The notes: a model not told the origin generated them from the letters alone. Positions 33,404-58,265 are shown, counted from the stretch's first letter. The stretch is 64,000 bases of DNA from Cirrosporium novae-zelandiae (GCA_026023565.1 JAPETS010000004.1:124001-188000); one strand, 5' to 3'. Made by a program: numbers and translations.

Positions 33404-33599
33404 GGGATTTTCCTGGGGGTATTAAGACAGAGTCGGGATGAAACCGGCAAAGGGAAGGCTATCAAAGAAATCCCTAGCGCAAATTAATGATAGTTTAATG
33501 GGAGGATTGGTGGCAGGTGCGCTGTGACCATTGATTAAGAGTTGGCTGCGAAATAACGAATATTATCTCACAGATCATAGATATATGATTAAAGCATTA

Positions 33600-33915: not shown

Positions 33916-34603
33916 GCGGCATAATCTATTATGAAGGAGAACGCTACCTAATTACCTAGATCAGTGTTCAACTTTGGTATCAAGCCAAGGGAACACTCCT
34001 AAGCTATCATCACTTATTGCCTCTGGCATTTAATTTTATGAGAATTATCCATCTATAGCGCCATCTATATAGTTGTTCCCATTATACTGCCTTGGATTTA
34101 AGCGCTGCCCTCACCCTATTTACAGCTGGTGGGTGTCTTCTATCAAAGAAGGCAGATTTTAGCGTAGATAGAATTCACTCCTTATAAATCTCTTCGCTCG
34201 GGCTAAACATCGTTTAAAAGCCCCGGGAATGTCGAACAGCAGGTACGTAAATGCTAGTTATTAGTTAAAATGAAGTTGAAATGGATGAAGGTGTATTAGT
34301 AATAAATTAGTAAATATATACTAAAAGTACCTAGGTACCTGGGATAGCGATTGGCTAGAGGATTGGAGGGGGTTGCAGGAATTGATTAAATCAAGCAACA
34401 CGGGCCATCATCACCAAACCCTGTCTCTACCTGTCATGCCTGTCTCACTTCTAACCTCCGCTCTTCATCCAAATATCAACATCTCCAACTCTCCGAAAAT
34501 AAAATTTATTAAATCACTATTTTTCTGAACCTTACCAAGACCATCACAGTCTGCTTGTTACTATAACTTTGCTCTCTTGGTAAAAATCCTTGGTAAAAAA
34601 AAA

Positions 34604-36866: not shown

Positions 36867-37730
36867 TTTACGTGCGGCCTGCATGCATAATTTTGTCCTT
36901 ATCGCTGACATGATGATGAACACACGAATGAGGACTCTTATGAGACAAGGAAATTGGCTAAGCTGGCTTTTCATGCTTTTCTTTTCAGATAGCAATCATC
37001 TTCTTCCCCCTTGCGCTGCTGCGGCGTTTGTTCTAACCCATCTCCTTGGATTATTAGATTTATTTCATGTGCCCTCACGGGTACGACCACTATCATGGTA
37101 ACCCACCAGAGAAAAGAATTTATATACCTACCTAGCCCAAATTACATACCTGTAAATAATGCGACTCTGATGACTAGATGCTAATCGTTATTAATATTAT
37201 AAAATCCTTAATAGCTTTATAATATTGTAAAAGAATTAGTAATTAGAGCAATATAAAATTGAAATATCAACAAGAATTGCAATCTTTTCAGCGTACTTAC
37301 TTACTACAGCAGTACAAATGACGCAAGAATACTATCCCGAAAAATCAAGCCGGTATCATCTCCCACTGCCCCCCCTTCTTCCTTTGAGTACAATATTCAA
37401 ACCTTAATCTCAATTATCTAAGTCACTTGTCCCTGTGCCAGCAAAAGCAGTATTCATCACTCACAGGTATGTTAATACATACCCTAACCCTCCCCTAAAA
37501 ACAAAGCGTATAGTCTAAAATATTACTTTATTACTCTATAACCAATAATGGTACATAAACTTCAATCTTCATTAATATTTATATACAGCTTAACCCCCCC
37601 CCCCCCGGCTGGGCCTTGCTTTGCCCTCAATTCATTAACATCTATCCTTTTTTCCTAGTCTTGTTAGCTCTTTACTCCTATCTTTTCCTTCCTCTCCAAC
37701 GACGGGGAAAAACTCAACCAAAGCCCTTTT

Positions 37731-39365
37731 TCAAACAGACATCGTCTGCAGCCACTTTGCCCCGAGCAAGTCGGTGGCGCTCGGTCTCTCCTCCGGGGCT
37801 AATCTTAGCATTGAAGTAATAAATTCCACGAAATCCTTCTCCTCCTCCTCCTCCTCCTCCTCCTCGATCACGAGACTAGACTTATCAATGAAGCCCTCAA
37901 ACGAGGATGACAGGGAGGGGGATTTCGACGACAGGGTTCCTGGAGTTTCGTTGGTAGGGCGTGGCATAGGTGTGTGCGTGCGGGAAAGGGAATTTGCCAT
38001 CTGAATTATAATACATAGCGGCAGTCCACGAGCTCGCCAACAGGGCCTTCGGCATGGGACCTAATAGCGCCTGTATCTGAGCTAGGTGAGACTTGAAGTC
38101 ATATAGGGATGATAGAGTTGCGCGGCTGTCGAAAAGAATTTTTCCTGTTGCGAACTCCCAGATCTAGCGGCAGCGTTTTTTTTGTCAAGCCATTGTAGAT
38201 AAAGCGGGATACGGCTTAGAAGAGACGAGGAGTGACTCACAATAGCACCCAGGTTCCAGATATCAGCGCTCGAATCCCATTTAGCGCCGAGGATTACCTC
38301 TGGTGCCCGTAACATCTTGGGCTGGATATTTTCGAGGAAGTGCTTGTCGAACCAGCTCGCTAGAAAGTTTTAGTGGGAATCAAAGCTAAAGTAGTGTGTT
38401 GTCATTTTTCATTCAAAGATATGGAAAACTTACAGGTTCCGAAGTCATTTAGCCTCACCGAAAAGTCCTCTGGGGGAGCAGATAGATCCTCAGTCGCCGA
38501 CGCTACCACCTCAGACTGCATGTAGAAGTCATTAGGAGGGTCTAAAGGCGGAGAAGGTTGGCGAAAAGCACTCGAGGGGAGACTCTCGAAAATCTCGTTG
38601 ATTTCTGTAGTTTCAATGAGAATATTCTGCGGTTTTATGTCTAAGGAATGCATTGGGAATTGAGTTAGCCGATGGGGTTCTGCGATCTTCCATTCGTTCA
38701 AAAGGGGAGGGGGGGGTCCAAACTTGCCCATATGTATGACCCTACACGATTGGTGCAGGTATGCCAATGCGAGTAGCAGTTGCTTTGAGATCTTCTTTAA
38801 TAGTGGCATCGGTATTATACGTTCTGGGAAAAGCCACAAGTACGTCCTCAAGTCTGGTCCCATGGCCTTGAAGACTAAACACAGGTGTTCTCCATGGGGA
38901 CCTTGATGCTGAAAGTGGTCGAGAAGACCTAGGATGTGCTTGGCTCCCGGGTTAGATGGGTTTGTAGTTTTTATATGTTCTAAGATGCTGAGCTCGAAGG
39001 TATCATTTTGTCCTCCGTAAGTGTAGGCTCTTAAGATCTTGAGTGCTAGGTGGCGATTGGTCCTGATGGATCTATTAGCCGAATGGACCCTCTTGTGAAA
39101 ATTGGTTTAATCTGCTATGAGTATACAGGCTCTAGGAAGTATGTATTGAGAATGCACGCGACGATGACTTGAGGTTACCCATATTCACAATTACTCACTC
39201 CAGATCGCGAACGAGCCAAACGGTAGAGTAACCCCCATATCCGAGCTTACGCACCACCTCGTACTTTCCATTGCTGAAGCTGTTACCAATTCGCATAGGA
39301 TGGTATCCACCTTGGCGATAGTCTGCAAAGGTCTCTTCCAATAGATTATCATTAGCGAATATTAT
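37731..39365 (-). CDS. SRPK-like (CMGC) serine/threonine kinase; start not resolved; two introns with GC donors (38641-38727, 37940-37997)
   Basis: YRQGGYHPMRIG, KLGYGGYSTVWL, ALKI, GPHGEHLCLV, IHMDIKPQNIL, DFG, IQPKMLRAPEVILG, DIWNLG, MLRLAPEERPSATDLL. Confidence 0.8.
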
Positions 39366-39507
39366 CTATCAACTCATAAACTAAGCTCTGATCTCCTCCA
39401 TGAATCAAATACAATGCCGAAACTATGCTGATACTATACTAGTTAATCTTACGTTTAAGGAGGGGGGTTAGGGGAGAAGTCTATATTACCGAGTATAAAA
39501 GTGTTCT

Positions 39508-39951
39508 TTATACGAGGCCTAAAACAGTCATCGCCTCTTTAGCATGAATCATGCCCCCATCGAGGTAAACCGCACCAAGAACGGCTTCAATAGTATCGGC
39601 CATGGTTCGAGGAGCCACGACTCTTCCTTGAGAAGGATTACCCTGGACGAAACTATCGAGGCCCTTGTTTCGGCCAACAAGATTGAGGTTTATATTGCTT
39701 GCTATTTGTTGTAACTTTCGATCGGCTTCTACTTTTGCTCCACCATTAATGTACCAAGTTTCGATGAGCGCAGATCTCAATATTGCATCGCCTACGATAG
39801 CGAGCCGCTTATTCCCCTCGGCGAGGCAGTGATTCCCGATAACAGGGAATAGAGAACCGGGAGCGTGAAGTGCTTCCCATAAAATAGAGCGATCCATGAA
39901 CCGATAGCCGATGATGACTTCGACGCTGCTGATGATAGAGTTTTGATCCAT
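39508..39951 (-). CDS. Stand-alone single-domain RNase III protein (147 aa, no dsRBD)
   Basis: IGYRF.DRSILWEALH, GNKRLAIVGDAIL, ASNINL, MADTIEAVLGAVYLDGG; intronless; TATATAAA-like element ~170 bp upstream. Confidence 0.85.
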   Translation of the reverse strand: MDQNSIISSVEVIIGYRFMDRSILWEALHAPGSLFPVIGNHCLAEGNKRLAIVGDAILRSALIETWYINGGAKVEADRKLQQIASNINLNLVGRNKGLDSFVQGNPSQGRVVAPRTMADTIEAVLGAVYLDGGMIHAKEAMTVLGLV

Positions 39952-40450
39952 GCCGGGTTCTCGATAACGTCGAGTGGTTGGTTGTGCTAGGAAAGAGTTG
40001 GGGCGATGAGTTCTGGAAGTAGGTAATGGGGTTAAAGATGAATCAATAGGTGTTAAAACCAGGCGAGTGAACAATGAGAAGATTGTGGTGCTGCAACTGG
40101 GGGAGCAGTGTCCGAATATATAAATATGGAGATGACGGACATAGGACCGTTTAACCGCCAGAATTCACGACGAAGGTGGCTGTGTAGCTAGTCACGGCTC
40201 AGCTATGATCAACCCTAGTGAAGGGAGGCAGGACAAACAGGGTCGAGGGGGTATAGAGACTAGGTAGAGTTTTTGGCTGAATGATGCTTATATTACCCTT
40301 TAAATAAGCTGTATATTTGGCTATTCTAGTTATTTGCCTTGAAACATTGTTTATTCTATTCTCACAGCTCCTGTCTAGATGTTCAAAACCTACAATCTTT
40401 TCACAATGTTTTTTAATAACGATCTTATTTCATCAGGGTAGCCAGCCTAT

Positions 40451-43400
40451 CTACATTGGCTGAAGTCGGACTTCAAGAGCGGATACTGTCTCTTGGGCGT
40501 TGCCTGGCTTACCCCATCCACCACCACCTAAGCAATCAAAGATCGCATGTCAGTATATTCTCTGATTGGTTCAACATAAAGACGGGAGCTAATTTTCGCT
40601 TACCAGGAGTGTTAATCTGCATTATTTCCCCCACCTGGAGATTTACTACAGCCTTTCCGCCTAGGCTGATCTTCTCCAGTGCCCCCTTCGCATTCTTCTT
40701 GAACATGTAGTTCTTCCCAAGCCCTCCGGGGTATCCCCCGTGCATGCCGTACGGGTTATACACTCTACGTTCAGAGAGGATGCTAAATTTCAGAGGTACC
40801 CGTGCCTCGATCTCTCTCACGATTCCATCTCCCCCGTTGAACTTTCCCTTACCCCCAGAGCCTCTTCGGATTTCGTATTTCCGAACCAGCACCGGTGTGC
40901 GTTTCTCGATAATCTCGGCGTCAGTATTCTTGGTGTTTGTGGCGTGGACATTAACACCATGCGCACCATGCCAGGTTGGCCCTGCACCACTGCCACCACC
41001 TAAGGCTTCGCCGTAATTCCAGCCTGGCCTGACAATGCCGGTTCTGGGATCTTTGCCACCCATGCCCCAACCAAAGCTGTTGGCACAGCCTTGCGCCGCT
41101 GCACACGAGTCAAATGCTTTGAATATCACATCTGTGATGCGCTGGCTGGCAATAGTGGAGCCACAGATGGCCACTGTTGGAGAGGGGTTGAGAATGGTGC
41201 CTTTGGGGATACGGATATGAACTGGATTTAGGCAGCCTTGGTTGAGGGGAATTTCTAGGTCTATTAGACACCGCAATGCATAAATGACAGCAGAGTGGGT
41301 TATCGAAATTGGAGAATTCATATTTCCATATGTTTGAGGGCCAGTGCCTTTGAAATCAAAGACCGCAGTTCCATCTTTACCGTTGATTGTAATTTCTAAA
41401 GCAACCGGCGTTCCATCGTCATAGAAATCGACCGCTTTTAGAGACTTTCCTTTTGTTTTCTTATAGGTCTCTCGGAGGAAATTTTTAATAGCCACCTCAG
41501 CATTCGCTTGGATGCCTCGCATGTATTTATGGACAACCGGGAGGCTATATTCCTCACATAAGCGACCAATGAGGTTGATTCCTCTCTGGTTTGCAGACAC
41601 CTGGGCTTTGAGATCGGAAATGTTGTCATTGATCCGCCGTGAAGCACTGCAGCCCGGATTTTGTGCTACTGATTCAAAGGCGTCCCTGATTTCGTTTTCC
41701 AAGAACTTGCCACCGCTAACAATCTTTAAAGACTTGATGGAAACGCCTTCCTCCCATAGTTCCTTAGAATCGGGGACCATAGAAGTTATACCACTAAAAA
41801 TAGACGATGAGAATTTATAAAACTATTAACTAAAGCGAAAGAAGACTTACATTCCGCCAATATCGGTGTGATGGCCTCGGGATGCGACATAAAAAATCAA
41901 CTTATCTTCGTAAAAGGCTGGTGTAATCACCGTCAGATCTGGCAAGTGTGTACCACCAGCCTCCGGATGATTCGTTAGTAGCACATCTCCAGGTCTTAAT
42001 TTATCACCCCACATCCGGTGCTGATATTGAATTGCATACTGCATGCTTCCTAGATGAACAGGGATATGCGGAGCATTGGCGACAAGAGCACCATCGTCTG
42101 AAAAGATCGCGCATGAGAAGTCAAGCCTTTCTTTAATGCTTGTACTAATTGATGTTCGCTGTAGGGTATTACCCATCTGTTCAGCAATTGACATGAAGCG
42201 ATTCGCAAAGACCGAAAGTTGCACAGGGTTGGTTCGCTCCTCAGAGATGACATCTCTTGGCTTTTCCTCTTGCACTTTTTCGATAATAACATGGCTAGAA
42301 GTGATAAAGGAGTTGAATCCCGATTCTACCAAGATTGTCTGCGTTTTATCCGTGATTAGTGCAGGACCCTGATATCAAAGTTAGATCAAGCTTCCTTAAT
42401 TCTTATTCAGAAGATATCACCTTAATATGGGAACGGCTCTGAAGGCCGTCCAGTTCGAAAATAGGAACTTCTTGCCAACCATCGTTCAAAAACACTTGCT
42501 GTGCTGAAGATTGCAGGGGAACAACTCTATCTCTTTTCGCGAGTTCAAGTTCTTTGAAAAGTGAGTTCACTCCACGCTCATAGCCTTGCTTCCCTATTCC
42601 CCGAACTTTGATACTGTCAACAAGAATATCTTTGTTTGAAGAGAAGGCGAATTCACGGAGGTGTTCCCTGGTGAACACAGCACCGTAATCCTCATCGGGT
42701 GGCTGAACAATTGGAATATTCGTATTCATGCCTTTATACCGAAGACTTAGATAAGTTTTGAACTCGATGAAACCCTCCTTGACTCCTTGAGAACAGAGGT
42801 CATTTTCAACTCTGGCCTGTAATATTTGGGCACGTTCGCTAATCCTAGGAAGTGCATCCATAGAAAATACCAATGCTGATGGTTCACTCGCTTCCGATTC
42901 AATTTCAGCCAAAGATATACCATGTGCCGAAAGGACAGAAGAATACTTGTGAATTAGGATGCGTTGAATACCAAGATTGGATGCAATTGCACAAGCGTGT
43001 TGTCCTCCAGCTCCCCCAAAACTAACTAAATTATGGTCATAGGTAGCAAATCCTCGAGCTTCAGTGATATTCCTAATGGGCCGGCTCATACTTTCATTGG
43101 CGACTTTGATAAATCCCAGTGCCACCTGTTCTAGTGTATATAGGGTATTAGACTGTTCATTAACACTATCCGTTATCTCTTGGAATTTCTTAGTCACAAC
43201 TGAAACATCTAGTGGTTGATCTGCATCATCTCCAAATATGGATGGGAACGAAGATAGGACCAATCGCCCAAGAAACAAGTTCGCATCAGTAATTGTCAAT
43301 GGGCCACCTTTTCGGTAGCAAGCTGGGCCTGGATGAGCACCAGCACTCTCTGGTCCGACAACCAGAAGACCATTCCTGGCAAAAAGTATAGAGCCACCAC

Positions 43401-44917
43401 CAGCAGCAACTGTAGATATATTAAGCATCGGAGTAGAGATTGCGCGACCGGCGATTGTTGTATCTAAGATATGTTCGAAATTACCGGAGTATCGTGAGAC
43501 ATCGGTACTCGTACCTAAGCCACCATTAATATTCTCACTTTTTTCAAGCGTTGAATAATGATGAGGGGATCTCACCCCCCATGTCAAAGCCAATTATTGC
43601 AGTACCCTCCTCAGGGTCATAACAAGAACGGGCGATACCAACTACTCCACCAGCTGGGCCACTCAGAAGCGCAGGGTTTCCAGAAAATGTCTGGGAATTT
43701 TTCAGGCCCCCATCAGAGCACATGAAGTCAACCCTTTGAGGAGGATCCTTGAATCTCGAGAGAAATCCATCAACGTATCTCCGTACTATCGGGGATAAAT
43801 AGGCATCCACACAGGCAGCGGTTGTTCTCCGTAATATCTTGATGTTGGGACTCAACTGGGAAGAACTCGAGATAAATTCAAAGCCCATATCTCTAGCAAG
43901 AGATGCTACAATCATTTCATGGTCGGGAAAGATATGAGAATGCATGAGGCAAATTGCAATGGAAGAGAAGCCATCTTGCCGTAGGCGTCGAAGTTGGTCT
44001 TTTGTCGTCTCGATATCCAACTCTTGAATAATTCGAATAACTTCGCCGCTAGCTGTCTTAACCAACTTTTTATCATTTTCATCAAATTCGGTTTTGGGAT
44101 ATGGATTCAGATCATAGTCTTCGATTGTGACTCGCTCATCTAACTCAACTACACGGGAGAATAATACTTCTGGTTTTCGGATGTTGAGGTCGAACAGACG
44201 GGGCCTTGATTGATCACCAAGTTCAGCGACATCCTTCATGCCTTCTCACGTTAGCAGGCTCTTCTATTTGTGCTGTTTTTAGCATGATCACAGTGGTTGC
44301 AACTAGCCAAGCCAAGTCAAGGCTATGCTGCTTATGCTTGAAAGTGCTCTTAACGTCGTGCGTGCAAGGATATTCGTAATTAGAATATTCACCACTTCCT
44401 AGTTCATAGCTTGTGCTGGAATCAGCCATGACTTGGATTGGCTTATTGCGAACATTGGTTGAGAATAGTACCTTTAGTTGTCAATAGCGCAAAGCGTTCC
44501 CCCTTTTGTTCCAGAAGCGCATTCGTCGCAACGGTTGTTCCAATCCGACATGATTCTATTATATTTCTTTTATTAGGGCACATTCTTTATTTCCAGCCAG
44601 TACGGCTATTTCCTCATAGCTACAAACCAATTCTGGAGCCATCCAACTTTTCTCCTACGGGTATAGATCGTCCTTCCACGGCCTCAAGTATTCGCCTTAT
44701 AGTCTCATATGGGGCATCAGGGTAATTTCGAGGATCTTCTGAAAGTAACTTGAGTATGATATCTTCTCGTCCTGGGATTTGCGCAATTCCATCACAAAAT
44801 GTGCCTCCTCGATCTATTATTCAGCCTCTAATCAGCCCTTCATCCTTCAATCACAAGACCAGAGTCAAATAGTTGCATACCAATTGAGATTCTGATACCA
44901 GGTGATATATTTGCCAT
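40451..44917 (-). CDS. 5-oxoprolinase / ATP-dependent hydantoinase A+B fusion, divergent paralogue (~1283 aa); exons 44881-44917, 44628-44813, 44472-44555, 43576-44241, 42421-43514, 41851-42368, 40604-41793, 40451-40527
   Basis: [103 protein letters not shown]. Confidence 0.93.
44305..44443. repeat. Inverted repeat (20-bp arms, 18/20 match) inside the 230-nt third intron of the oxoprolinase gene
   Basis: AGCCAAGCCAAGTCAAGGCT (44305-44324) versus AGCCATGACTTGGATTGGCT (44424-44443). Confidence 0.75.
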
Positions 44918-45465
44918 CTTGATAGATAGCAACCAAATTTTGGCGCCATCTTGCAGTCGCTGGTTTATTTCATATATACTATGATGAATCCGCTATCGAT
45001 AAAATGATAGGCACAGAACGAACTCTGTCGGATCCTTGTCTTAACCTTAACACGCATAGCTCAGCGAGGTCGGAGAATTGCGATATCATTGAACAAAAAG
45101 GTGAGGAGGATAGTTTTTACTAAATGCGGTAATTTATGTCGGCCCAGTCCCGCTATCACTCGATAAAAGAGGCGAAAAAAAAAGGTGTATCTAATATCAT
45201 AAATGCACTTGATAATCAAGTCATTTTAGGACAGATATCGCCATTGCACCCAAACCCATATTTGAAGGTGAAATTATGGAGGAATTGTAATGATGAGATT
45301 ACTTCTTCCCGAGGTCGGAATAATGCCAAGATTCAGATTAATGAAGCTCCGTCTCCCACGCCTTCACTTCAACGGTGTAACGGGTACTTACACAATAATC
45401 AAGACAATTCATTGTCACCATGCCTCTCACATACTCTCCACAGCGTCTCCCAATGAGATCCTACC

Positions 45466-47514
45466 ATGGAAAGCTCCTTTCATCGCTTTCGTGTCTCTCG
45501 CCCATCTGATCCTCCACAGTCCTTACCTTCTAGTCCTTCGGCTTTAGCACGCACACGCCAGGAAATAGCATTTGACAAAGCACCATCAGCCTGTCATCGT
45601 TGTCGGCGATTGAAGAAGAAATGTAGTAGGACAACTCCGGAGTGTACGCTATGTGTTGCTGCTGGAGTGCGATGTTCCTTTCCCGACAATTTCATATCAC
45701 CAAAACGTGCCAAACAGCTCGAGGAAAGGATAGCATGGCTCTCTAAATGCGTTAACGATGCCCTACCCGTTGATTGCCCTTCTGTTGAATCAATTGATAC
45801 AGGCACAAATATCAATTTGTCGTCGAGTACTTCTATTGGATATCCTGAAAGAAATCTAGATACGACTCCATCAGGATCAAGCTATAGGCATAATTCCACA
45901 GGCGAGCAGATTAGCACTAGTGGGTCATGCCTAAATTTTGACGACGACCAATCTTTACAACATCAGGAAGGTTCGGGTCCTGCGCATCACACCCCAAGGC
46001 CACCTATTCATCGAATGGCCCCAGAGTCGGCTGGACGCCAGTTTGTTAATGTTTACTTCAAACACGTCCATAGGGCCTACCCGTTTATCAATCGGGCTAA
46101 AGTCTTAGAGGACATCGAGGCCGTGGGAGACTTGACGGAAGACGGGATTGGTACAATATCAACGAAGCTATATATGATAATGGCCATTGGATGTACGACC
46201 CTTCAGCGTGCTGGGCGATTACCAGATGGCATTTTTGCCAAATTCAGGATATCATACGCGGATATAGTCCAAGAGTGCTTACACAAAAATAATATTGAAT
46301 CTATGGAAACACTCGTCCTTCTCGGACTATACTCTCTGTTCGATCCATCGGGATTATCCCCGTGGACAATTACTGGTATACTCTCACGTCAGGTGATTGC
46401 CCTTGGTCTAAGTCGAAAGTCACTACAAAGCAACAGGTCATCTCCTCACGAACTTGAGTTACAAAATCGATTATTTTGGAGCATCTACGTTTTCGATCGA
46501 ATGATCTCCGTATCTCTGGGGTTACCGGTTGGGATGAATGACGAAAAAGCAAATATACCCTTACCCAGTATCACCATGGAAGAATATACGTCTCCAGAAA
46601 GGACCACCCTTGCTGTTACTCTTCAAGTTAATCGACATATTATTTCTCTTCGGCAGATCGAAGAAAATATTCTAAAGAAAGTTCATCTACCCAATCAGAA
46701 TATGATCAGCTCTCTCAGCCAAGCAGATAAGTTTTCAATTATTCAAGATCTACGGTCTCAGGTTGAAGATTGGTACAGTCATGGATGTCTCCTTGTACCA
46801 CTGGAAATAGACCGAGATCGCATCCCATTTCACAACACAGTCCCTTGGTTAAATGTCCGTTACCACAATCTTCTTATCCTTCTTTATAGTCCGTCACATT
46901 TCCACTCCGACATATCCCTAGCACAACTCATGGATCTTCAACGATCGGCGCAAAGTTATGTTCAATCTAGTGCAGTACTGTTACAAAAGCACCAACTACC
47001 TCTGAACTGGATTACCCTTTATCGGCTAATTCCTATTTGTGCCGTCCTACTGTATTGTTTCGTGAGGCTGAAAGGAGTCCGAAGGCCATTTGACTCAAAA
47101 GAAGAAGTAGAAATATGTGCAGATATCCTTGACGCTTTTCCAGAACGATGGCAAATTGCTAAACGGAGCGCTCAAGTCTTTCGTCTCCTAGCTGTAGCCA
47201 CGAGCCCTGAGAATGTTGTAGCTTCCATTGACTCAATCATTAACCATGGAAACCTCGTCTCCGATTCTACCGCAGGAGTTGGGGACTCGGGTAGGGTTTC
47301 CCTTTCCTCGGTAGAAACTGAAGTCATGAGCCTGATCCGCGAGGTGCTTGGGGAAGCTAGTATATACAACTCGATTGATGGAACTGCAGATATTCTCGGC
47401 GAAGGAACTGATCTCCAACTTTTTGATAGATGTCGTTCAGCACTTCAAGCTAGTAATGATACTGATGACAGGGCCTGGTTCGCTGATTCGACTTGGAGCA
47501 TGGAATTTCTCTAA
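45466..47514 (+). CDS. Zn(II)2Cys6 transcription factor with fungal-specific TF (middle homology) domain
   Basis: ACHRCRRLKKKCSRTTPECTLCVAAGVRC; YFKHVHRAYPFIN; RLFWSIYVFDRMISVSLGLP. Confidence 0.95.
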   Translation: MESSFHRFRVSRPSDPPQSLPSSPSALARTRQEIAFDKAPSACHRCRRLKKKCSRTTPECTLCVAAGVRCSFPDNFISPKRAKQLEERIAWLSKCVNDALPVDCPSVESIDTGTNINLSSSTSIGYPERNLDTTPSGSSYRHNSTGEQISTSGSCLNFDDDQSLQHQEGSGPAHHTPRPPIHRMAPESAGRQFVNVYFKHVHRAYPFINRAKVLEDIEAVGDLTEDGIGTISTKLYMIMAIGCTTLQRAGRLPDGIFAKFRISYADIVQECLHKNNIESMETLVLLGLYSLFDPSGLSPWTITGILSRQVIALGLSRKSLQSNRSSPHELELQNRLFWSIYVFDRMISVSLGLPVGMNDEKANIPLPSITMEEYTSPERTTLAVTLQVNRHIISLRQIEENILKKVHLPNQNMISSLSQADKFSIIQDLRSQVEDWYSHGCLLVPLEIDRDRIPFHNTVPWLNVRYHNLLILLYSPSHFHSDISLAQLMDLQRSAQSYVQSSAVLLQKHQLPLNWITLYRLIPICAVLLYCFVRLKGVRRPFDSKEEVEICADILDAFPERWQIAKRSAQVFRLLAVATSPENVVASIDSIINHGNLVSDSTAGVGDSGRVSLSSVETEVMSLIREVLGEASIYNSIDGTADILGEGTDLQLFDRCRSALQASNDTDDRAWFADSTWSMEFL

Positions 47515-47766
47515 TATTTGTTTTGATAGACAGCACGAACCTAAATCAACAGATTTTGAGTGAAACCGTTTGATACACCTTGCAGAACATTACCTCGAAC
47601 CAATACTACAAATAAATTTTACTACTGGAATAAACTAGGTTTTAGTGGTTTTATTCTCACCACCTATGTGTGACTAAGGGTGGAACTAGCTAGTGGCTTC
47701 AGATTTGTTTCTCATACAGCCCACACCAGTCGGTCATTTTTACCTAGTGGCTTTCTAACGTGGCTT

Positions 47767-48848
47767 TTATTTTTTCAGAAAAGTACGAATTGTTTCTAAA
47801 ACAAGACTGTTCTTTTCTAGATGAACGCTGTGGTTGGCGTTAGGAATCATAACCAAAATCGAACCCGCAATCCCATTTGCAATCAAACGTGATTGATCTG
47901 ATTATAAAATTAGATGTAGTAGGGGAAGGGAGACTTCAACGGACATTACCTGGAGGACAGATCCAATCCTTTTCACCAACTACTATGAGCGTTTGTGCTG
48001 TGACTTCCTTTAATCTTGGTCGATAGTCGAAATACTTTTCTTTTTCTGAGTAAAGATCATCTTCAATAGCAATTACTTATTAGCTAGCCGCGCAGAGAAA
48101 ACTCATGTTTGGAGCTTACTATGCGTCTTCGCATGAAATACAGTTTCTCTATTACGCTTCAAACTAGCATTGGCGTCATAACTCTCAGTGTAGAGCGGTC
48201 CGAGGGCGAACATGACCAGCTGGAATTCACAATCATCCTCAAATGCGCCAAAGACCCCATCTACTAACATATCCTTTGACGCACATGGGGCTCTTGGCAG
48301 CCTCATTTCTAAGGTTTTCAAGGCCTCAGCTTCGTCTTGACCTATTAGTGAGGATGAAGGAGTAGGAGTTTTGAGGGGCTTACGATGCCAAGAAGGTGCT
48401 GTCCCTCGGAGGACCAAATGCGAGACGCAAGAAGCATACTCAATAGCATACTGCTGTGCAAGGTAGCCTCCAAAGCTCCCCCCTATAATAATTACTGCTA
48501 TATCTTTCCCCGCAAAATGCTGCCTCATGCCATCAATATCGTCAACAAGTTGGCGAAAGGTGAACGGCTCGGTCATTGAACTTTGCCCATGGCCACGGAA
48601 ATCAAACGACAGGACACGATATACGTCACCTAGCGGCGAATAGGCCTTGAAATCTGAATGGTGATCGCCTAGATAGAGGCAGGCAATCGTTAATATTGAC
48701 ATTGACTCGTATTTGAACAAGAAAGGATCCTACCGAAGCCCCGACCTCCATGCAGGGTAATAATCAAGGGGGTATCTTGAGGTCCGACTATGCGGTAGTG
48801 AAGCTGTGCACCATTGATGGTAACAAAACCCGAATTAGCCATATCCAT
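47767..48848 (-). CDS. Alpha/beta-hydrolase, proline-iminopeptidase-like (~285 aa); introns 48669-48733, ~48336-48383, 48061-48119, 47898-47949
   Basis: LHGGRG, FDFRGHGQS, GGSFGG nucleophile elbow, VGEKDWICPP (acid), NANHSVHLE (His). Confidence 0.88.
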
Positions 48849-49284
48849 GATTGAGATTTGGATGTCAAATATCTAAAATGTGCATATAAAGAGGTACTTA
48901 CCGGGAGGGAATTACAGGTGATCGGTTAATTAACTGATCGGTTCGGCTACTTACGGGTAAAGATATCGATATCGCCGGATATGACTAACTCCATCTAGCA
49001 ATTTTGGTCGGGGCCTAGCGCGACTACGATATCGGACGAAACAAACCTTCAAGGAATCTTGTTTATATTATTCATAGCAAGAGATAGCTCATGATGCTAT
49101 GCATATCAACCAATAGCATGACTCACATCAAGGTCTACCCAGCATGTGGGGAGCTGGATAAGAAAAGACAAAAGCCATGAAATTTACTTATGATAGACCC
49201 AATGGTTGAGAAATATATATCTGTCTCGACTGCTCGCCTTCATTCATTCAGCAGGACGGCTTGGCATCTCTCAGATCTCCAGCA

Positions 49285-51197
49285 ATGGGTTCTTCAGCTT
49301 CACTCCATGAAGATACAGCAGTAACCAATCCATCGCAAAAGATACGTTGGTTTAGCTGGCATGAACCTGGTACTTCAAAGGAAGAAAAACGCCTCATCTT
49401 CAAGCTTGACTGGTTTATTCTAAGTTATAGCTGTCTGGCAAGTCTCCATCTAGAATTTCCCTTCACTAGATAAATCCCTCCTAACTATCCGACACAGTGC
49501 TTTTTCAACAAGTACCTTGACCAGCAAAATGTCACCAATGCCTACTCTTCTGGTATGAGCGACGACCTGGGTTTCGGCCCTGGGAATGAACTTAGCAAAA
49601 TGAACACATATTTCAACATTGGTATAATTCTAGGAGCCCCAATTTCTAACCTCCTAATCACTATAATCCGGCCTTCGCGATGGCTACCTCTGTGCATGAC
49701 CGCCTGGTCACTATTCGTCCTGTTTCTGTATAAATGCAACACGGCACCTCAGTTCTACGGGCTGAGATTTTGTATCGGGTTTTTTGAGTCAGCTGCATTT
49801 CCAGGCGTGCACTATGTACTTGGATGCTGGTATCGGAAATCTGAACTCGCGAGACGCAGCTCCCTCTTCGTCATTTCGGGAGTCCTAGGCCAGATGTTTT
49901 CGGGATACTTGCAGGCAGCCCTATTCACGGGCATGGACGGCAAGGGAGGCATGGCAGCGTGGAGATGGTTATTCATCTTTGATTTCTTGCTCGCTATCCC
50001 GATTGCCTTGTATGGCTTTGTGAGCCTGATTCCCCCTTTTTTTTGAAGCACAATGAGGAAGTCATTCTAACCAAATAAAGTTCTGCTTCCCTGATACACC
50101 TCACACGACTAGCGCATGGTACCTGAATGAATGGGAACGACGACGTGCTTGTGAACGGATAGACGAGGAGGGTCGAGCTCCTGTTGGGAAGATGGACCTG
50201 TCCGTCTTGAAACGGATCCTCACGTCCTGGCAATTTTATGTCTTCAGTTTAGCGTATGTAGCTTAGTCTTCCCTCCTCCTCCTCATCCCCCGTTCTCTCA
50301 AATACCCGTCACTAACATCAGTTACCTCTCACAAACAGCTGGAGCTTCTGGAGTCTAACCTGCGGCTCCTACGTGATGCAATGGATGACGCTCTGGTTAA
50401 AAGAAGAAAACTATTCGGTCGTGAACATAAACAATATCCCCACGGTCATCGGCGCCGTAAACTTCGTCTTCATGATAAGTACCGGATACGTTTCCGACAA
50501 AATCGGTATGTATACTTCTCTCTCTCTCTGTCTCTTGTCACCCCGCAACTAATCCCCCCAATCCACATAGGCACCCGCGCCCCCGTCACCCTCGCCGTCG
50601 GCACCCTCCTTACATTCTGCTACATAATCCTAACGATCTGGGACGTGCCCCGCGGCCTGAAAATGGCCGCCTTCTTTCTAACTGGCTGCTACGGCTGCTT
50701 CTCCCCACTGATTGCGGGCTGGTGCAACACCCTTTGCGGGGGCGACCAGCAACTTCGCGCCTTCACACTTGCTTGGATGGGGAGTTTGGGAAGGTATGTG
50801 TTCAAATATTTTTTTTCTTTCCATCACCATCCACCATCCACCATCCACCATCCACATCCATATAAATCAAAACTAACCGGGTCTTTTTTCTCTGCATAGT
50901 GGTCTCGTAACCCCCTTTCAGCAATACATGTTCCCTTCCTCAGATGGACCCGAATACCGAAGCACGCACGGCTATCCCGCCGGCCTCGCCTTCGTCATTG
51001 CCCTTACCGTTTGGCTTTCATTTGGAATTCCTTCCGTCGAAAGGTGGAAGAAGTCCGGCAGTGAAGGGAGGAATGGTGGAAATGGGACTGTGGAAGAAGA
51101 GGAAAGTGGGGCCGTGGTTGTGGATGTGGATGTGAGTTTAGATGGCGATAGTGATGGGAAGGGGGAGAGGCCAAAGGCGTTTGATCTGAAGGGATAA
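49285..51197 (+). CDS. MFS transporter, anion:cation symporter (allantoate/pantothenate permease, Fen2/Seo1-like) family (~511 aa); introns 49438-49497 (GC-AG), 50020-50080, 50254-50338, 50506-50570, 50794-50899
   Basis: EKRLIFKLDWFILSY, KYLDQQNVTNAY.SGM, RFCIGFFES, LGCWYRKSELARR, GQMFSGYLQ, G.AAWRWLFI, PDTP. Confidence 0.9.
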
Positions 51198-51634
51198 TTA
51201 GTCTAGCGGGAAAGACTGATGGGGTTATTTGACCGGAAAAGTAAAAAAGGTTGTCTTTTTTTATTTATGGGTTTAATCTTTATTACTATCACCACTATCA
51301 CCAATGACTCTCGGGCCTGAGAACCAAAAAAAACACCATATATATTCTTCATACAAGACCAGCCACAAATTTAGTCGCCACGTTACTGAAGGCCCTCCCC
51401 AAAATACATCTAACAAACCCAGTTATTAGATGCATTTACTTTACATATAGAAAGATGAAAGAGAAATAGCAGTTACAAATTAAAATGGGAGAAATGATTT
51501 ATGTTCATGTTTTTGTAAAGCTAGTAGGAGGGAATGTGCAGTTTCTCTCTCTCTCGATATATAGATAACAAAATTAACCAGCTCACCTAAATTCAATCCG
51601 TCTTCAACTACTTTTTATTTACGTTGGTTAAAAC

Positions 51635-52808
51635 CTAAAGCCTGTCGGATTCCTTTAGGGGTAGGATATCCGGTAGCGGACCTGCGGGAACTATGAGATC
51701 GCCGGGGCGGATATCGCGGCCTTTGCATAGGGCTTTTAAGTAGCCAAGCTTGTACTAGAATTAGTATATGTTAGTTTCGGAGGGTTGGATGTTCGTCTCA
51801 GCAAGCATGGGAGGGAAAGGAAAGGGAAGAGGGATGGTGATATATACCAGATCGAAATAGGTTGTCTTCTTGAAGGCTCCGAAGTTGGTTCTCTCGGATT
51901 CATCCCAATAGAGCCTCCAGAACCAGAGATGCAGATTTGGATAGTCGAGTCTAATCATCTTGATATTGCATTCTCAAAGCGTGTAATATGCGACATCGAA
52001 GCGGCCGATTGTGGCGTATAATCGGATGTCAGCCTCTGTGATACTCTCACCGAATAGGAAGGGGCCGTGGCCCGGCTGCCCTAGATGCTCTTCCAGGCGA
52101 TCTAGGGATTTGAAGAGACGATATACATTAGCATCATAACCCTCCTGCGTTTTAGCGAGGCCGGTCTTGTAGACGCCGATGTTGACGGTATCGTAGACCC
52201 ATTCGTTCATCTCGTCGATTTCTTTGCGCAGGTGCTCGGGGTAGAATCCCCCGCCAGGGCAGTTTTCACCCCGCATCTTCTCCGGCAGCAGGTCGTCAAA
52301 CTCGGAATAGAACATCCGGATGATTTCGCTGCTTTCGTTGTTCACGATCGTTTCTTTTTTCTTGTCCCATAGCACGAGGACGGAATATGCTCCCACGTAG
52401 TCTGGACTTGCCTTCTCGTATAGTTGCTTCATGTATTTGAACCCGTAGAGAGGATCTTTTTCATCCGTCCCCTTTCGTCCGGAGAAGGACCAACCATTGG
52501 GACCAAGTTCATAGTCGGTGATAGCGAGTTGAATAACATCCTCGAGGCCTTTGAGAGAGCGAACGATGTTTGCACGATGCGCGAAGGGGCATCCCCAGTT
52601 GAGGTAAAGGACGTAGCGATCACGCTCAGCAGGGAATTCGGCATTGGGAGAACGAGAGACAGAGGAACGGAAGGCGGAAGGTTTGAGTTTGAAATTGCCT
52701 TCATTCTATAGATATCGAGTAAGGGATTGAATACGAACACGAGCAAGAAGAAAATAAGCAAAGGTTTGGGGTAAAGAACTGGCTGAGGGATCTGACCTTG
52801 TCTGTCAT
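51635..52808 (-). pseudogene. Omega/xi-class GST (glutathionyl-hydroquinone reductase, ECM4/YqjG-like) with in-frame TGA at 51974-51976; introns 52706-52796 and 51755-51847
   Basis: FPAERDRYVLY...CPFAHR...LKGLEDVI, VLWDKKKETIVNNESSEIIR, VYDTVNIGVYKTG, TEADIRLY.TI.RFDVAYYTL*ECNIKMIR.DYP, IVPAGP. Confidence 0.85.
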
Positions 52809-53842: not shown

Positions 53843-54262
53843 ATGCAATTCAAGTTCCTCATCACTCTCTCCACCCTCTCCCTCCTATCCCTCACCACAG
53901 CCATTCGTGTCTCTTATGACAATGGCTATGATGATGGCAGCCGGTCCCTTTCGGCCGTCTCCTGCAGCGACGGCACCAATGGCCTCCTAACAAAGGGCTA
54001 CACGACGCAATCCTCACTCCCGAGCTTCCCTAACATTGGTGGTGCATCCACCATTGCTGGTTGGAACGATGCCAACTGCGGCAAGTGCTACAGCCTAACC
54101 TACAACGGCAGAACTATCAACGTCCTTGCCATTGACCATGCCGCCACCGGCTTCAATATCGCCCAGGAGGCTATGGATACCCTGACCAATGGTCAGGCCG
54201 TCATGTTGGGCTCTATCGATGCTACGTACGCCGAGGTCGCTGCTTCTGCTTGTGGCATGTAA
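53843..54262 (+). CDS. Cerato-platanin family secreted protein (SnodProt/Epl1/Sm1-like)
   Basis: Signal peptide, [65 protein letters not shown]. Confidence 0.96.
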
Positions 54263-55484: not shown

Positions 55485-58265
55485 TCAAGCCTCAGTACCA
55501 TTCCCATTCGTCTGTGCGGGCATAGCCTCGGCCGCATTAAGCTTACCGATGAGTTTGGCGTTCTGGTCTTTGAGCTGAAGCTCCGACTTTTCCGCACGGT
55601 CTTTGGCTTCAGTTACGGCCTTGAGTTCCTCGTCTACGCTTTCCTTGGCGTCGTTAGCAGCCGCAAGCTGGGATTCTGCCTCGGCCTTTGCGGATTCGGC
55701 AGCGCTAAGTTTAGCATCAAGATCAGATTTAGCGGCTTGGATAGCCTTAAGATCTTCCTCGGTGCTAGTGACTTTGCTTTCGATCTCTTTCAGTTGAGTT
55801 TCAGCGGATTCCTTGGCTGACGATGCGGCAGCAAGCTTCTCCTCCGCCTCCTGCTTAGCACTTTCTACAGCAGCAGCCTTCTCCTCTGCTTCTTGTTTAG
55901 CGCTCTCGGCGGTAGCAAGTTTCTCCTCTGCCTTTTTTTTAGAACTTTCTGCAGTAACAAGCTTCTCCTCTGCTTCTTGTTTAGCGCTTTCGGCGGTAGC
56001 AAGCTTCTCTTCTGCTTCTTTTTTAGAATTTTCGGTAGTAGTAAGCTTCTCTTTCGCTTCTTGTTTAGAACTCTCGGCTGTAGCGAGCTTCTCTTCTGCT
56101 TCTTGCTTGGCACTTTCTGCGGCAGCAAGCTTCTCTTCTGCTTCTTGCTTGGCACTTTCTACAGCAGCAGCCTTCTCCTCTGCTTCTTGTTTAGCGCTCT
56201 CGGCGGTAGCAAGCTTCTCCTCTGCTTCTTGTTTAGCGCTCTCGGCGGTAGCAAGTTTCTCCTCTGCCTTTTTTTTAGAACTTTCTGCAGTAGCAAGCTT
56301 CTCTTCTGCTTCTTGTTTAGCACTCTCCGCGGCAGCAACCTTGGTCTCCAGATCGGCCTTTGCTGCATTAGCGGCATCGACCTTTTGGCTGTTCTCCTGT
56401 TCACCATTCTTCGCTGCATCAAGCTCTTCTACGAGTTTGATCTTTTCAGTTTCAGCTGCGGCAGCCTTCTCTTCGGCCAGCTTGAGAGATGCTTCGGCGG
56501 ATCCCTTAGCCTCAGTTGCAGCCTCGAGTCTGGTGGAAAGCTTAGACTTTTCGGCTTCGAGATCCCGGACCGCCTTAGTAGCCTTTGCTACCTCTTCTTT
56601 ATCTACACTCAGATTGCCGGTAGCTGTCTCGAGATCGGCCTTAAGGTTTGCAACTTCCTCCTGAGCAGCGGTAAGCTCGGCTTCCTTTGTAGCCAGGACA
56701 TCTGCAGCCTTTTGCTTATCGGCTTCAGCAGTCTTCAAGGATTCCTCCAACGAAGAAATGCGGGATGAAGCGGTCTGTTGCTCAACTCGAACATCCTCAA
56801 GATGCTTAGTGAGTTCTGAAATCTTGCCCTTGGCCGTTTCTAGGTCGGACGTGCTAGAAGTGAGGTCAGCTTCTGCGTTAGCCTTAGCTTCTTCTGCAGC
56901 TTTCAGCGAGGCCTCGACAGCAGCAAGTTTGTCTTTATCAGTCCGGTCAGACTTGACCTCTTCTAACTCAGTAGTAAGATCTGAAACCTTCGACTCGGCA
57001 GTAGTAAGAGCTGACTTGGCGCTCTCGTAGTTCTTTGTGGTTTCCTTAACTTCAGTAGTAAGCTTGGTAACTTGGGCTTGGGTATCTTCATGGCTCTTAG
57101 TGCTAGCTGCAAGGGCATCCTTGGTTTCGCTGTGACTATCCTCAGCTACCTTGACAGCCTTCTCGAGTTCTTCCTTCTTTGCCTGAAGATCTGCAATCTC
57201 AGCCTCCTTGGACTTGACGGTGTTCTCGAGCTCCTCAACTGCCTTGGTCTTCTCTTCCAATAAAGCCTTCAGGTCCGAAATCTCAGAAGCGTCAGCACCC
57301 CTGGCATTTTCGAGTTCATTCTTTACCTCTTCCAATGAAGATTCGGCAGTTGCCAGAGAAGCCTTGAGTTGAGTCAGTTGGGTTTCAGAGTTGTTGTAAG
57401 CTTGTGTCTTCTCTTCCAATGCCTTGGCAGTCTCTTCCTTTTGAGAGGCATATTCCTTAGCTTGTTCTTCGGTGGTAGCCTTGGCGTTGTTGAGTTCTGA
57501 TTGCAGAGCGGTAAGTTGAGATTTGAGAGATTCGGTGGCTTGGAGTGCCTCTTCAAGAGCTTTAGTGGATGTAGATTTATCGGATTGTAGTTCTGACTTG
57601 AGCTTCTCAATCTGAGCTTCGAATTCAACCTTTGCGGCTTGGCTGGTTTTGGTTGCTTCTTCTAATGATTTAGCAGACTCTCCTTGAAGTTGAGTGACTC
57701 TGTCCGAATGTTCTTTGGCGGCAGCTTCTACGGCGGATGAAGCGGCTTGTAGCTCGGCATTCTTTCCTTCAAGCTCAGCTTTTATGGAGGCGATCTGAGC
57801 TTCCAGTTCAGATTTGAGTGACTCCTTAGCATTCCTTTCCTCCTCTAGAGCCTTTGCAGATTCCTCTTGGAGACTTGTGTACTTATCGGCGTTCTCGGAT
57901 GCATCCTTCTTCGCAGCTTCTAGGTCTGCAATGGCCTTGTCAAGCTTAGTCTTGAGCTCGTCAATGTCAGTGCCAGTTCTTAATCTCAAATCAGCCATCT
58001 CGGATTTGGAAGTAGCAGACTCATGTTCCAACTCCGAGAGCTTCTGTGCTGTCTCAGCAACTTTGGACTCTAGATCCTTGTTTGTGGCGGCGAGGGCATC
58101 GTTAGACTCCCCCTTTGTCCGTGCATCCTCCTGGGACTTTTCTAACTCTTCTTTAGTCTGCTTGAGCTGAGATTCAAGATCATCTACTCGCTCGTTAAGT
58201 GGCTTTCCCTTGGGAGGAGCCGGCAAAGACCGCCTGCCAAAGATGTACTGATAAAACCGAAGCAT
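55485..58265 (-). CDS. Long alpha-helical coiled-coil protein (E/K/A-rich, ~926 aa) with 14-aa tandem repeats
   Basis: Uninterrupted ORF from ATG 58265, heptad-rich, with repeats AESAKQEAEEKLAT. Confidence 0.8.
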   Translation of the reverse strand: MLRFYQYIFGRRSLPAPPKGKPLNERVDDLESQLKQTKEELEKSQEDARTKGESNDALAATNKDLESKVAETAQKLSELEHESATSKSEMADLRLRTGTDIDELKTKLDKAIADLEAAKKDASENADKYTSLQEESAKALEEERNAKESLKSELEAQIASIKAELEGKNAELQAASSAVEAAAKEHSDRVTQLQGESAKSLEEATKTSQAAKVEFEAQIEKLKSELQSDKSTSTKALEEALQATESLKSQLTALQSELNNAKATTEEQAKEYASQKEETAKALEEKTQAYNNSETQLTQLKASLATAESSLEEVKNELENARGADASEISDLKALLEEKTKAVEELENTVKSKEAEIADLQAKKEELEKAVKVAEDSHSETKDALAASTKSHEDTQAQVTKLTTEVKETTKNYESAKSALTTAESKVSDLTTELEEVKSDRTDKDKLAAVEASLKAAEEAKANAEADLTSSTSDLETAKGKISELTKHLEDVRVEQQTASSRISSLEESLKTAEADKQKAADVLATKEAELTAAQEEVANLKADLETATGNLSVDKEEVAKATKAVRDLEAEKSKLSTRLEAATEAKGSAEASLKLAEEKAAAAETEKIKLVEELDAAKNGEQENSQKVDAANAAKADLETKVAAAESAKQEAEEKLATAESSKKKAEEKLATAESAKQEAEEKLATAESAKQEAEEKAAAVESAKQEAEEKLAAAESAKQEAEEKLATAESSKQEAKEKLTTTENSKKEAEEKLATAESAKQEAEEKLVTAESSKKKAEEKLATAESAKQEAEEKAAAVESAKQEAEEKLAAASSAKESAETQLKEIESKVTSTEEDLKAIQAAKSDLDAKLSAAESAKAEAESQLAAANDAKESVDEELKAVTEAKDRAEKSELQLKDQNAKLIGKLNAAEAMPAQTNGNGTEA
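55813..56340 (-). repeat. Coding 42-bp minisatellite, about 12 copies
   Basis: Repeated unit resembling tctgcttcttgtttagcgctctcggcggtagcaagcttctcc on the + strand. Confidence 0.9.

Follow-up and report, generated by a model that had tools for sequence, protein, structure and literature searches.

A locus of the fungus Cirrosporium novae-zelandiae (GCA_026023565.1, JAPETS010000004.1:124001-188000; this stretch of 64,000 nt is referred to as the window) carries four real and intact core genes, encoding an oxoprolinase-like enzyme, a Zn2Cys6 factor, a serine alpha/beta hydrolase and an MFS permease, and their linkage exceeds chance. We tentatively favour a reading in which these genes form a conserved catabolic module that takes up a cyclic amino-acid amide of roughly dipeptide size, for instance a 2,5-diketopiperazine or a comparable lactam bearing an amino-acid substituent, opens it at the expense of ATP and cleaves the product. 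The permease would import the cyclic amide, the oxoprolinase-like enzyme would open one ring amide with ATP, as expected from the chemistry of its family, and the serine hydrolase would split the amide left in the linearized molecule, so that the liberated amino acids could serve as a nitrogen or carbon source; substrate identity and the order of the two steps are putative.

Exon models and Pfam matches bore out the gene content, order and orientation given for the cluster (positions 40,451-52,808) in the first-pass annotation. The enzyme (40451..44917, minus strand) is encoded by eight exons (44917-44881, 44813-44628, 44555-44472, 44241-43576, 43514-42421, 42368-41851, 41793-40604 and 40527-40451) that yield an intact frame of 1,283 aa with PF05378, PF01968 and PF02538. 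Across a GATA-rich divergent intergenic region (44918..45465) lies the factor (45466..47514, plus strand), a single exon of 682 aa with PF00172 (Zn_clus) and PF04082 (Fungal_trans). The hydrolase, a PfmaB-like member of an HGGRG family (47767..48848, minus strand), has five exons (48848-48734, 48668-48384, 48335-48120, 48060-47950 and 47897-47767; 285 aa) and is separated by a second divergent intergenic region (48849..49284) from the permease (49285..51197, plus strand), an MFS_1 protein of putative anion:cation symporter (Dal5/allantoate) type with six exons (49285-49437, 49498-50019, 50081-50253, 50339-50505, 50571-50793 and 50900-51197; 511 aa). The exon models consist of open frames with GT-AG introns, apart from one GC-AG intron in the permease.

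A synteny comparison revealed that orthologues are linked in other fungi as well. Of the 13 fungi matched, 11 carried enzyme and hydrolase on one contig, all five pairs that were looked up lay within one to three accession numbers of each other, and six assemblies placed enzyme, hydrolase and factor within five accession numbers. Complementarily, at least one partner accompanied the hydrolase in eight of ten fungal metagenome loci. The linked orthologues came from four classes of filamentous ascomycetes, one intronless yeast-like contig and intron-rich contigs. Carriers of the module include section Nigri species of Aspergillus such as A. uvarum. All four genes together were found in none of the fetched fungal loci, the accession-number comparisons covering enzyme, hydrolase and factor. 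The conserved uptake and two-hydrolase module proposed at first pass was thus supported by orthologue linkage across fungi, and also by bacterial hydrolase relatives tied to hydantoinase/oxoprolinase pairs (23/74 loci).

The five-gene composition suggested initially held for this four-gene core, linked beyond chance, but not for its fifth member, an omega/xi-type GST gene (51635..52808, minus strand; three exons; GST_N_2 and GST_C_2) that probably lies outside the module. Its frame contains a TGA at codon 248 of 329 (window position 51975), where two paralogues from the same genome carry a residue, indicating that the gene is broken or mis-assembled. Moreover, no such GST was linked to the hydrolase in the ten fungal metagenome loci, only five of which exceed 10 kb. 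Stop codon and absence from these loci together led us to reject the GST as a module member. A DSBA/kappa-GST-like gene, belonging to another family, adjoins two of the loci (L059 and L060); it also turned up in three of the 28 bacterial loci of the first round.

The enzyme is a putative ATP-dependent cyclic-amide hydrolase of the PfmaA clade. Hydant_A_N, Hydantoinase_A and Hydantoinase_B each scored above the Pfam cut-off within a single chain, which corresponds to the fused eukaryotic type, and the motifs DRGGT, DMGGTSTD, ERLDFS, HPxxGGTHLPD and HHTDIGG are retained as in the paralogues; we take these to represent the actin-like ATP-binding site and the Asp/His residues of the B domain. The protein thus shares fused A and B domains, ATP-binding motifs and a length of about 1,280 aa with eukaryotic 5-oxoprolinases (yeast Oxp1, animal OPLAH), but falls into a clade of its own with 14 clade-specific substitutions, several of them within the B domain, where a loop reads GSTIASQ instead of the GN-x-x-TSQ of the paralogues. 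With Pestalotiopsis fici PfmaA (PFICI_07097; 63% identity) it formed a joint clade with a support of 100 in a quick tree built with a single long-branched outgroup and 32 database rows picked as matches to the window enzyme, and five paralogues from the same genome fell outside this clade. One paralogue, on contig C45, is more canonical and closest to the insect oxoprolinase (46% identity, compared with about 42% for the window enzyme). The separate clade and the proximity of the C45 protein to the insect enzyme argue against a housekeeping 5-oxoprolinase (Oxp1/OPLAH orthologue). Superfamily and chemistry are also shared with bacterial ATP-dependent lactamases and N-methylhydantoinases (CapAB 6YRA, 7HK5; opine-lactam HyuAB); the N-methylhydantoinase 7HK5 was the nearest PDB sequence to a homologue of the enzyme (E 3e-106), whereas the window enzyme scored far under the CapA and CapB cut-offs.

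The hydrolase, which is present as a single copy in the genome, belongs to an HGGRG family that sequence comparison sets apart from proline iminopeptidase. Its catalytic triad (Ser103-Asp237-His265) is conserved in 73 of 74 rows of a mainly fungal alignment, and R36, E135, R145, D168, E170, Y182, H205, W238 and C240 are near-invariant; the 30 rows labelled bacterial in alignment and tree include one spurious row (L014_2066). A predicted model of a homologue (pLDDT 95.7) was closest to tricorn interacting factor F1 (TM 0.79, 23% identity), a proline iminopeptidase of family S33. Fold, triad and HGGxG oxyanion loop are common to both proteins, but the HGGPG of F1 is replaced by HGGRG, its Glu245 by an invariant Trp, and the position of Glu213 by Asp, Glu or Ala. 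A proline iminopeptidase identity (S33; TIGR01249/TIGR01250) found no support at the curated cut-off: three full-length homologues reached 75-99 bits and a bacterial homologue 96 bits for TIGR01250, against a cut-off of 167.65. In F1, the two glutamates hold the free amino group of the substrate; with Glu245 missing and the Glu213 position variable, recognition of such a group by the hydrolase is putative. Further near-invariant acids of the cap (E135, D168, E170) might take over from the F1 glutamates, and a carboxylate might be bound by the invariant Arg36.

For the permease, the best NCBIfam model was TIGR00893, a D-galactonate (ACS) transporter, at a score far below the cut-off and obtained on a single exon, and a search of solved structures with a permease exon gave no match; atlas matches bore generic names only. 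The protein presumably resembles the Seo1/Vht1/Fen2 subgroup. Homologues are encoded divergently from the hydrolase in five loci (L045, L059, L060, L061 and L065, with 69% identity in the last). Contig C71 of the same genome carries what appears to be a parallel module: the two permease paralogues most similar to the window protein (50% and 47%) lie there with a further oxoprolinase, an M19 dipeptidase and a factor.

In bacteria, 72 of 74 hydrolase loci contained a family-5 peptide-type binding protein of an ABC importer, which, together with the M19 dipeptidase on C71, points to a peptide-like cargo. The enzymatic partner, in turn, followed an either-or pattern: 22 loci carried only a hydantoinase/oxoprolinase pair, 50 only an atypical M24 protein, one both and one neither. 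Ketogulonicigenium vulgare (KVU_RS15855/15850/15880) exemplifies the pair type and Neorhizobium galegae the M24 type. On the tree, the partner type changed state at least eight times; allowing for kinship left only four independent pairs on well-supported branches, none of which was concordant (mean of 3.5 opposed, sign test p 0.125). Both locus types occurred side by side in two bacteria (L190 with L230, L195 with L220), suggesting related but different substrates. The pattern suggests a pathway of fixed two-enzyme layout in which different proteins can take the ring-opening step, while leaving the order of the two steps unfixed. Relative to prolidase, two of the five metal ligands are missing from the M24 partner, which also carries one Asp-to-Glu change. 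Its top PDB match was the ring-opening ectoine hydrolase, with Xaa-Pro dipeptidases scoring about equally, so that a ring-opening role of this partner is tentative.

The two steps could also run in reverse. Here, the hydrolase would split an imported pyroglutamyl or gamma-glutamyl amino acid, and the ATP-dependent enzyme would convert the freed 5-oxoproline, or a close analogue, into glutamate, a scheme we consider rather unlikely. A proline-peptidase-like fold devoid of the amine-binding Glu245 of F1 suits a blocked N-terminus, and the enzyme itself has the fused oxoprolinase layout found in eukaryotes. Furthermore, passages of PMC7617739 describe import of gamma-Glu-Met by yeast Seo1p of the Dal5 family and state that fungi have no gamma-glutamyl cyclotransferases acting on dipeptides of this kind. 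However, free 5-oxoproline would hardly call for a diverged, dedicated clade given the canonical paralogue, and the M24 partner in 50 of the 74 bacterial loci comes without an ATP-binding domain, whereas 5-oxoproline opening requires ATP according to a section of PMC6061476.

A plain cyclic dipeptide does not account for the redox neighbours of the bacterial hydrolases, which speak against the favoured pathway. AhpD-like proteins (50/74), BisC-like proteins (44/74), FAD oxidoreductases (34/74) and opine dehydrogenases (24/74) were frequent, the last occurring in 15 of 23 hydantoinase-type loci, and a PF03313 protein, which we assume to be cysteine-desulfidase-like, was found in 2 of 74. These neighbours, among which S/N-oxide reductases are common, would fit a non-peptide N/S heterocycle derived from an amino acid (cyclic amidine, thiazoline or opine lactam). 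Its opening would give an N-acyl or N-carboxyalkyl amino acid for the hydrolase to act on as deacylase or amidase, a course of steps like that of DoeA and DoeB with ectoine. The ectoine hydrolase at the top of the PDB matches of the exchangeable M24 partner points the same way, as would a carboxylate bound by Arg36, and opine lactam opening has been proposed for hydantoinase pairs in an excerpt of PMC6733357. We nevertheless regard a heterocyclic substrate as improbable: no redox enzyme accompanies the fungal module within the window, and peptide-type transporters and the C71 dipeptidase point to a peptide-like cargo.

Going by linkage only, the factor probably induces the module genes; the self-regulation proposed at first pass is thus putative. 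Factor homologues, which reach 45% identity across most of the protein, adjoin the enzyme or the hydrolase in several fungi, although their linkage is looser (9/19 and 7/12 in genome comparisons, about half). Within 44918..45465, HGATAR occurred eight times, as compared to 2.3 expected at the window rate. GATATCG was found twice in this region and five times in 48849..49284, counting both strands of overlapping palindromes, but is enriched across the whole window (23 occurrences against 6.8 expected) and missing from nine orthologous intergenic regions. The HGATAR/GATATCG pattern of 44918..45465 was likewise not kept in orthologous loci, and no k-mer common to the window and the nine orthologous intergenic regions stood out.

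The initial view that no known cluster is alike needed qualification: relatives have been named PfmaA and PfmaB, and a wine-yeast region B is similar, but no function for PfmaA-C and no pathway for region B are assigned in the literature searched. The enzyme falls into the PfmaA clade, while the link of the hydrolase to PfmaB rests on a transferred label, the homologue P0037 being termed 'Proline iminopeptidase PfmaB'. We take PfmaC to be a further counterpart of the module in the P. fici pfma region. These names would place the genes in melanin synthesis; otherwise, they might surround a spare housekeeping oxoprolinase by chance. The P. fici relative was indeed named 5-oxoprolinase PfmaA and cloned with the melanin cluster, and about half of the compared genomes lack linkage of the factor. 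Both ideas are nonetheless highly improbable, as enzyme-hydrolase linkage, kept across fungi and recurrent in bacteria, largely refutes them. In addition, PfmaE and PfmaG alone are needed for melanin intermediates according to part of a review (PMC8005728), PfmaA being reportedly dispensable, and a portion of a later paper counts seven melanin genes, excluding PfmaA-C (PMC11653720). The window, unlike the pfma region, has no visible melanin genes: ORF lists contained no polyketide synthase-like long ORF, and ORF lists and Pfam scans of the flanks showed RNase III-like, kinase, cerato-platanin and coiled-coil neighbours but no synthase, unlike a DHN-melanin cluster. Relatives of three module genes thus seem to be filed under a pigment cluster, apparently without a role there. 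As far as described in a part of PMC7212421, region B comprises a factor, an oxoprolinase, a TNA1-like permease, a flocculin and another factor, thus sharing with the window an oxoprolinase that adjoins an ACS-type permease, along with Zn-cluster factors, but lacking the hydrolase. Cryptococcus CNAG_06871-06876 was ruled out as the same module, carrying an aldolase-like gene instead of this hydrolase in the relevant section of PMC7067042. Literature on PfmaB/PfmaC, oxoprolinase, proline iminopeptidase and diketopiperazine, for the most part open-access papers, yielded no description of the module, PMC5484541 and PMC12732919 contributed nothing further, and the literature searched held no report of an HGGRG hydrolase coupled to CapAB/HyuAB-type enzymes.

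Overall, cyclic-amide uptake, opening and cleavage is favoured by the conserved linkage, the separate enzyme clade despite a canonical C45 paralogue, the either-or partners in bacteria, the nearest solved structure of the hydrolase being a dipeptide-cleaving peptidase, and the parallel module on C71. As outlined in a passage of PMC3852281, bacterial diketopiperazine breakdown proceeds by a ring hydrolase and then a dipeptidase, the first enzyme being unknown. Cyclic-dipeptide utilization might even be common to fungi and bacteria, with PfmaA-clade enzymes, HyuAB pairs and atypical M24 proteins as interchangeable openers and the HGGRG hydrolase as dedicated peptidase. We consider this wider proposal doubtful; if true, it would supply the first enzyme of diketopiperazine breakdown plus an ATP-free analogue.

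Together, these findings delineate an old and widespread orphan pathway whose core, two enzymes, is small and testable. They suggest that the names PfmaA, PfmaB, 'proline iminopeptidase' and '5-oxoprolinase' mislabel many fungal proteins, and the either-or pattern predicts one job for three different enzymes. Should the substrate be a diketopiperazine, ring-opening enzymes would be identified, answering a question left open in the literature and providing biocatalysts for a stable compound class of foods and microbial products.

The four core genes of the window were found intact and in the arrangement proposed by the first-pass annotation, within fungal DNA of about 45% G+C (source assembly, 31.4 Mb). 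Splice-site-based exon models, with domains confirmed by Pfam, yielded an oxoprolinase-like enzyme of 1283 aa (40451..44917, minus strand), a Zn2Cys6 factor of 682 aa (45466..47514, plus strand), a serine hydrolase of 285 aa (47767..48848, minus strand) and an ACS-type permease of 511 aa (49285..51197, plus strand). Public model P0241 (window 38402-44917; 1815 aa) joins the enzyme to the RNase III-like and kinase genes that lie downstream of it, and the public hydrolase model P0001 retains one intron and omits the final exon, which encodes the catalytic His. The flanking genes, taken from an ORF list and Pfam, encode the RNase III-like protein, the kinase, a cerato-platanin (53845-54262) and a long coiled-coil protein containing a 14-residue tandem repeat (55485-58358). 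Elsewhere in the assembly, contigs C35/C47 and C32/C94 gave the same hits at identical or matching positions, which suggests duplicated contigs.

Linkage of the orthologues is conserved in other fungi, and this holds above all for enzyme and hydrolase. Queries were the factor, the hydrolase and a single exon of the enzyme; matches were paired by eye on organism name, with equal length of the longest contig taken as the mark of a shared contig. On this basis the hydrolase shared a contig with the enzyme in 11 of 13 organisms and with the factor in 7 of 12, and 9 of 19 organisms had factor and enzyme together; paired representatives may stem from separate strains or from paralogues, and sharing a contig does not equal adjacency. 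Among pairs of these three genes preselected for a shared contig, accession numbers lay 1-3 apart for hydrolase and enzyme (5/5) and for factor and enzyme (4/5; the exception, Colletotrichum truncatum, at 66), and 2-3 apart for factor and hydrolase (3/3). All three genes fell inside five consecutive accession numbers in six assemblies (two each of Hyaloscypha variabilis and Biscogniauxia mediterranea, Biscogniauxia FL1348 and Camillea tinctor); in Hymenoscyphus fraxineus the enzyme adjoins the hydrolase (HYFRA_00002829/2830) and the best factor match is located elsewhere. One Aspergillus melleus model (P0301, 1521 aa) contains both oxoprolinase and alpha/beta hydrolase domains, representing either a true fusion or two merged adjacent genes.

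A hydrolase alignment further retrieved 23 metagenome loci, of which we inspected the 10 fungal-looking ones. The hydrolase was accompanied by factor and enzyme in L055, by the factor in L056, by a back-to-back enzyme in the intronless L044 (39% G+C), by permease and enzyme in L059 and L060, and by the permease in L045, L061 and L065 (permease identity 69% in L065); L059-L061 are close kin. None of the ten, only five of which exceed 10 kb (L043 and L054 are below 2 kb), held all four core genes or an omega GST. The GST gene of the window (51635..52808, minus strand) does lie beside the core as annotated, but probably does not belong to the module: its codon 248 of 329 (region of 51975) is an in-frame TGA, where two paralogues elsewhere in the genome have a residue, indicating either a pseudogene or an assembly error. 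In two fungal loci rich in introns, the enzyme is followed by a DSBA/kappa-GST-like gene (L059:16224-16718 and L060:10556-11116), and three of the bacterial hydrolase loci contain a homologue of it (E 5e-11; for example, L050:17495-18097).

The enzyme belongs to a separate clade. The genome carries six fused oxoprolinase-like genes and one distant one; in a quick tree of 42 rows, the window enzyme clustered at support 100 with 32 rows including Pestalotiopsis fici PfmaA (63% identity), a wider group of equal support added L044, L059 and L060, and five genome paralogues fell outside, that on C45 being nearest to insect oxoprolinase. As the outgroup sits on a long branch and most rows were picked for matching the window enzyme, the tree speaks for the distinctness of the clade, not for its age. 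Clade members retain the ATP motifs and differ from the paralogues at 14 positions, including the loop GSTIASQ (GN-x-x-TSQ in the paralogues), which may line the substrate site.

Record P0275 is labelled '5-oxoprolinase PfmaA' and an Exophiala hydrolase 'Proline iminopeptidase PfmaB'; PfmaC is presumably an ACS permease. According to the available part of a review, deletions in a heterologous host left PfmaE and PfmaG as the only genes required for the melanin intermediates (PMC8005728), and a later paper, in its accessible portion, gives a list of seven melanin genes from which PfmaA-C are absent (PMC11653720). We read PfmaA-C as the present module adjoining a melanin cluster in one fungus.

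Filing the hydrolase as a proline iminopeptidase was rejected, three full-length homologues scoring 75-99 bits, under the model cut-off of 167.65. It represents a separate family with a full catalytic triad, and 73 of 74 rows from a mainly fungal set carry Arg in the oxyanion loop (HGGRG); the motif's invariance in bacteria is partly built in, since HGGRG or related motifs served as search patterns there. The AlphaFold model of a homologue matched tricorn interacting factor F1 most closely (TM 0.79), but in the alignment F1 Glu245 is replaced by an invariant Trp and F1 Glu213 faces a variable position; other cap acids are nearly invariant and might hold a free amine instead. The hydrolase is predicted to act like an S33 amidase.

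Bacterial relatives of the hydrolase (44-51% identity) come chiefly from Alphaproteobacteria. Among 80 hydrolase-centred loci, the 74 of at least 15 kb were counted: a family-5 binding protein occurred in 72, and the partner slot held one of two enzyme types, visible also on annotated plasmids. The hydantoinase/oxoprolinase pair HyuA/HyuB was present without the linked-type M24 enzyme in 22 and the M24 enzyme without the pair in 50 (both, 1; neither, 1), a count that overstates the statistical weight, since the hydrolase tree shows at least eight changes of partner but just four independent pairs on well-supported branches (p 0.125). Conversely, 53 of 70 M24-centred loci had the hydrolase within 9 kb, and three HyuAB-type genomes searched whole contained no close match to the linked-type M24 enzyme (best 31%). 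Compared with prolidase, this M24 partner lacks two of the five metal ligands and has a third changed from Asp to Glu; its top PDB match is ectoine hydrolase (E 4e-22), with Xaa-Pro dipeptidases close behind (7e-20). L018:10621-11796 and its relatives form an M24-fold family, likewise short of two metal ligands, for which 101 stretches were confirmed across the genome collection; most of these adjoin an HGGRG hydrolase.

The partner swap is poorly accounted for if the hydrolase acts first, on pyroglutamyl or gamma-glutamyl amides, a route that draws on the available account of Seo1p (PMC7617739) and that we consider rather unlikely. Other common neighbours were AhpD-like (50/74), BisC-like (44/74), FAD oxidoreductase (34/74) and opine dehydrogenase genes (24/74, and 15 of 23 HyuAB loci). 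These redox neighbours are best accounted for by a heterocycle or opine-lactam route (PMC6733357, in the portion available), which we nonetheless regard as unlikely.

The enzyme-factor spacer is GATA-rich (HGATAR, 8 observed versus 2.3 expected). GATATCG occurs in both spacers, is also frequent across the whole window and was found in 0 of 9 orthologous regions. To judge from linkage, the factor may control its neighbours. Both the component families and this type of cluster, the regulated utilisation cluster of fungi, are already known. The first-pass annotation knew of no characterised fungal cluster of this composition, and our literature search, with most subscription papers outside its scope, likewise found no description of the module as a pathway; of the arrangements described, wine-yeast region B comes nearest, without the hydrolase in the part of the source available (PMC7212421).

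Oxoprolinase paralogues on C52, C80 and C71 of the same genome each have an ACS-like permease and a factor as neighbours. On C52 and C80 (L066-L069), the paralogue stands back to back with an MFS permease, with a Fungal_trans_2 factor nearby. A distant fused hydantoinase/oxoprolinase on C36 (L076-L077; 26% identity) has an amidase, a polysaccharide-deacetylase-like gene and a factor alongside, neighbours reminiscent of the Aspergillus nicotinate cluster with its cyclic-amide hydrolase and amidase. On C71 (L072-L073, about 23000-38200), two ACS-like permeases, which are the paralogues nearest to that of the window (50% and 47%), flank an oxoprolinase, a fungal-specific factor and an M19 membrane-dipeptidase-family gene. 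The plan is that of the window cluster, but with M19 in place of the HGGRG hydrolase, indicating that permease, ring opener, peptidase and factor were assembled twice with unrelated peptidases. M19 enzymes cleave linear dipeptides, and this gene's presence thus favours ring opening before cleavage.

Bacterial diketopiperazine breakdown, in the accessible account, is reported to take two steps, by an as yet unassigned ring hydrolase and then by a dipeptidase (PMC3852281), and the available part of another paper offers the speculation that many proteins annotated as oxoprolinases in fact hydrolyse cyclic dipeptides (PMC6061476). Diketopiperazines therefore fit, although we hold them doubtful as the specific substrate. 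Our tentative first choice is the broader class, a cyclic amide of dipeptide size, with ring opening as the first step: the compound would be imported, opened by the enzyme in an ATP-driven reaction modelled on caprolactamase and oxoprolinase (PMC6061476, same part), and the resulting linear amide would then be cleaved by the hydrolase.
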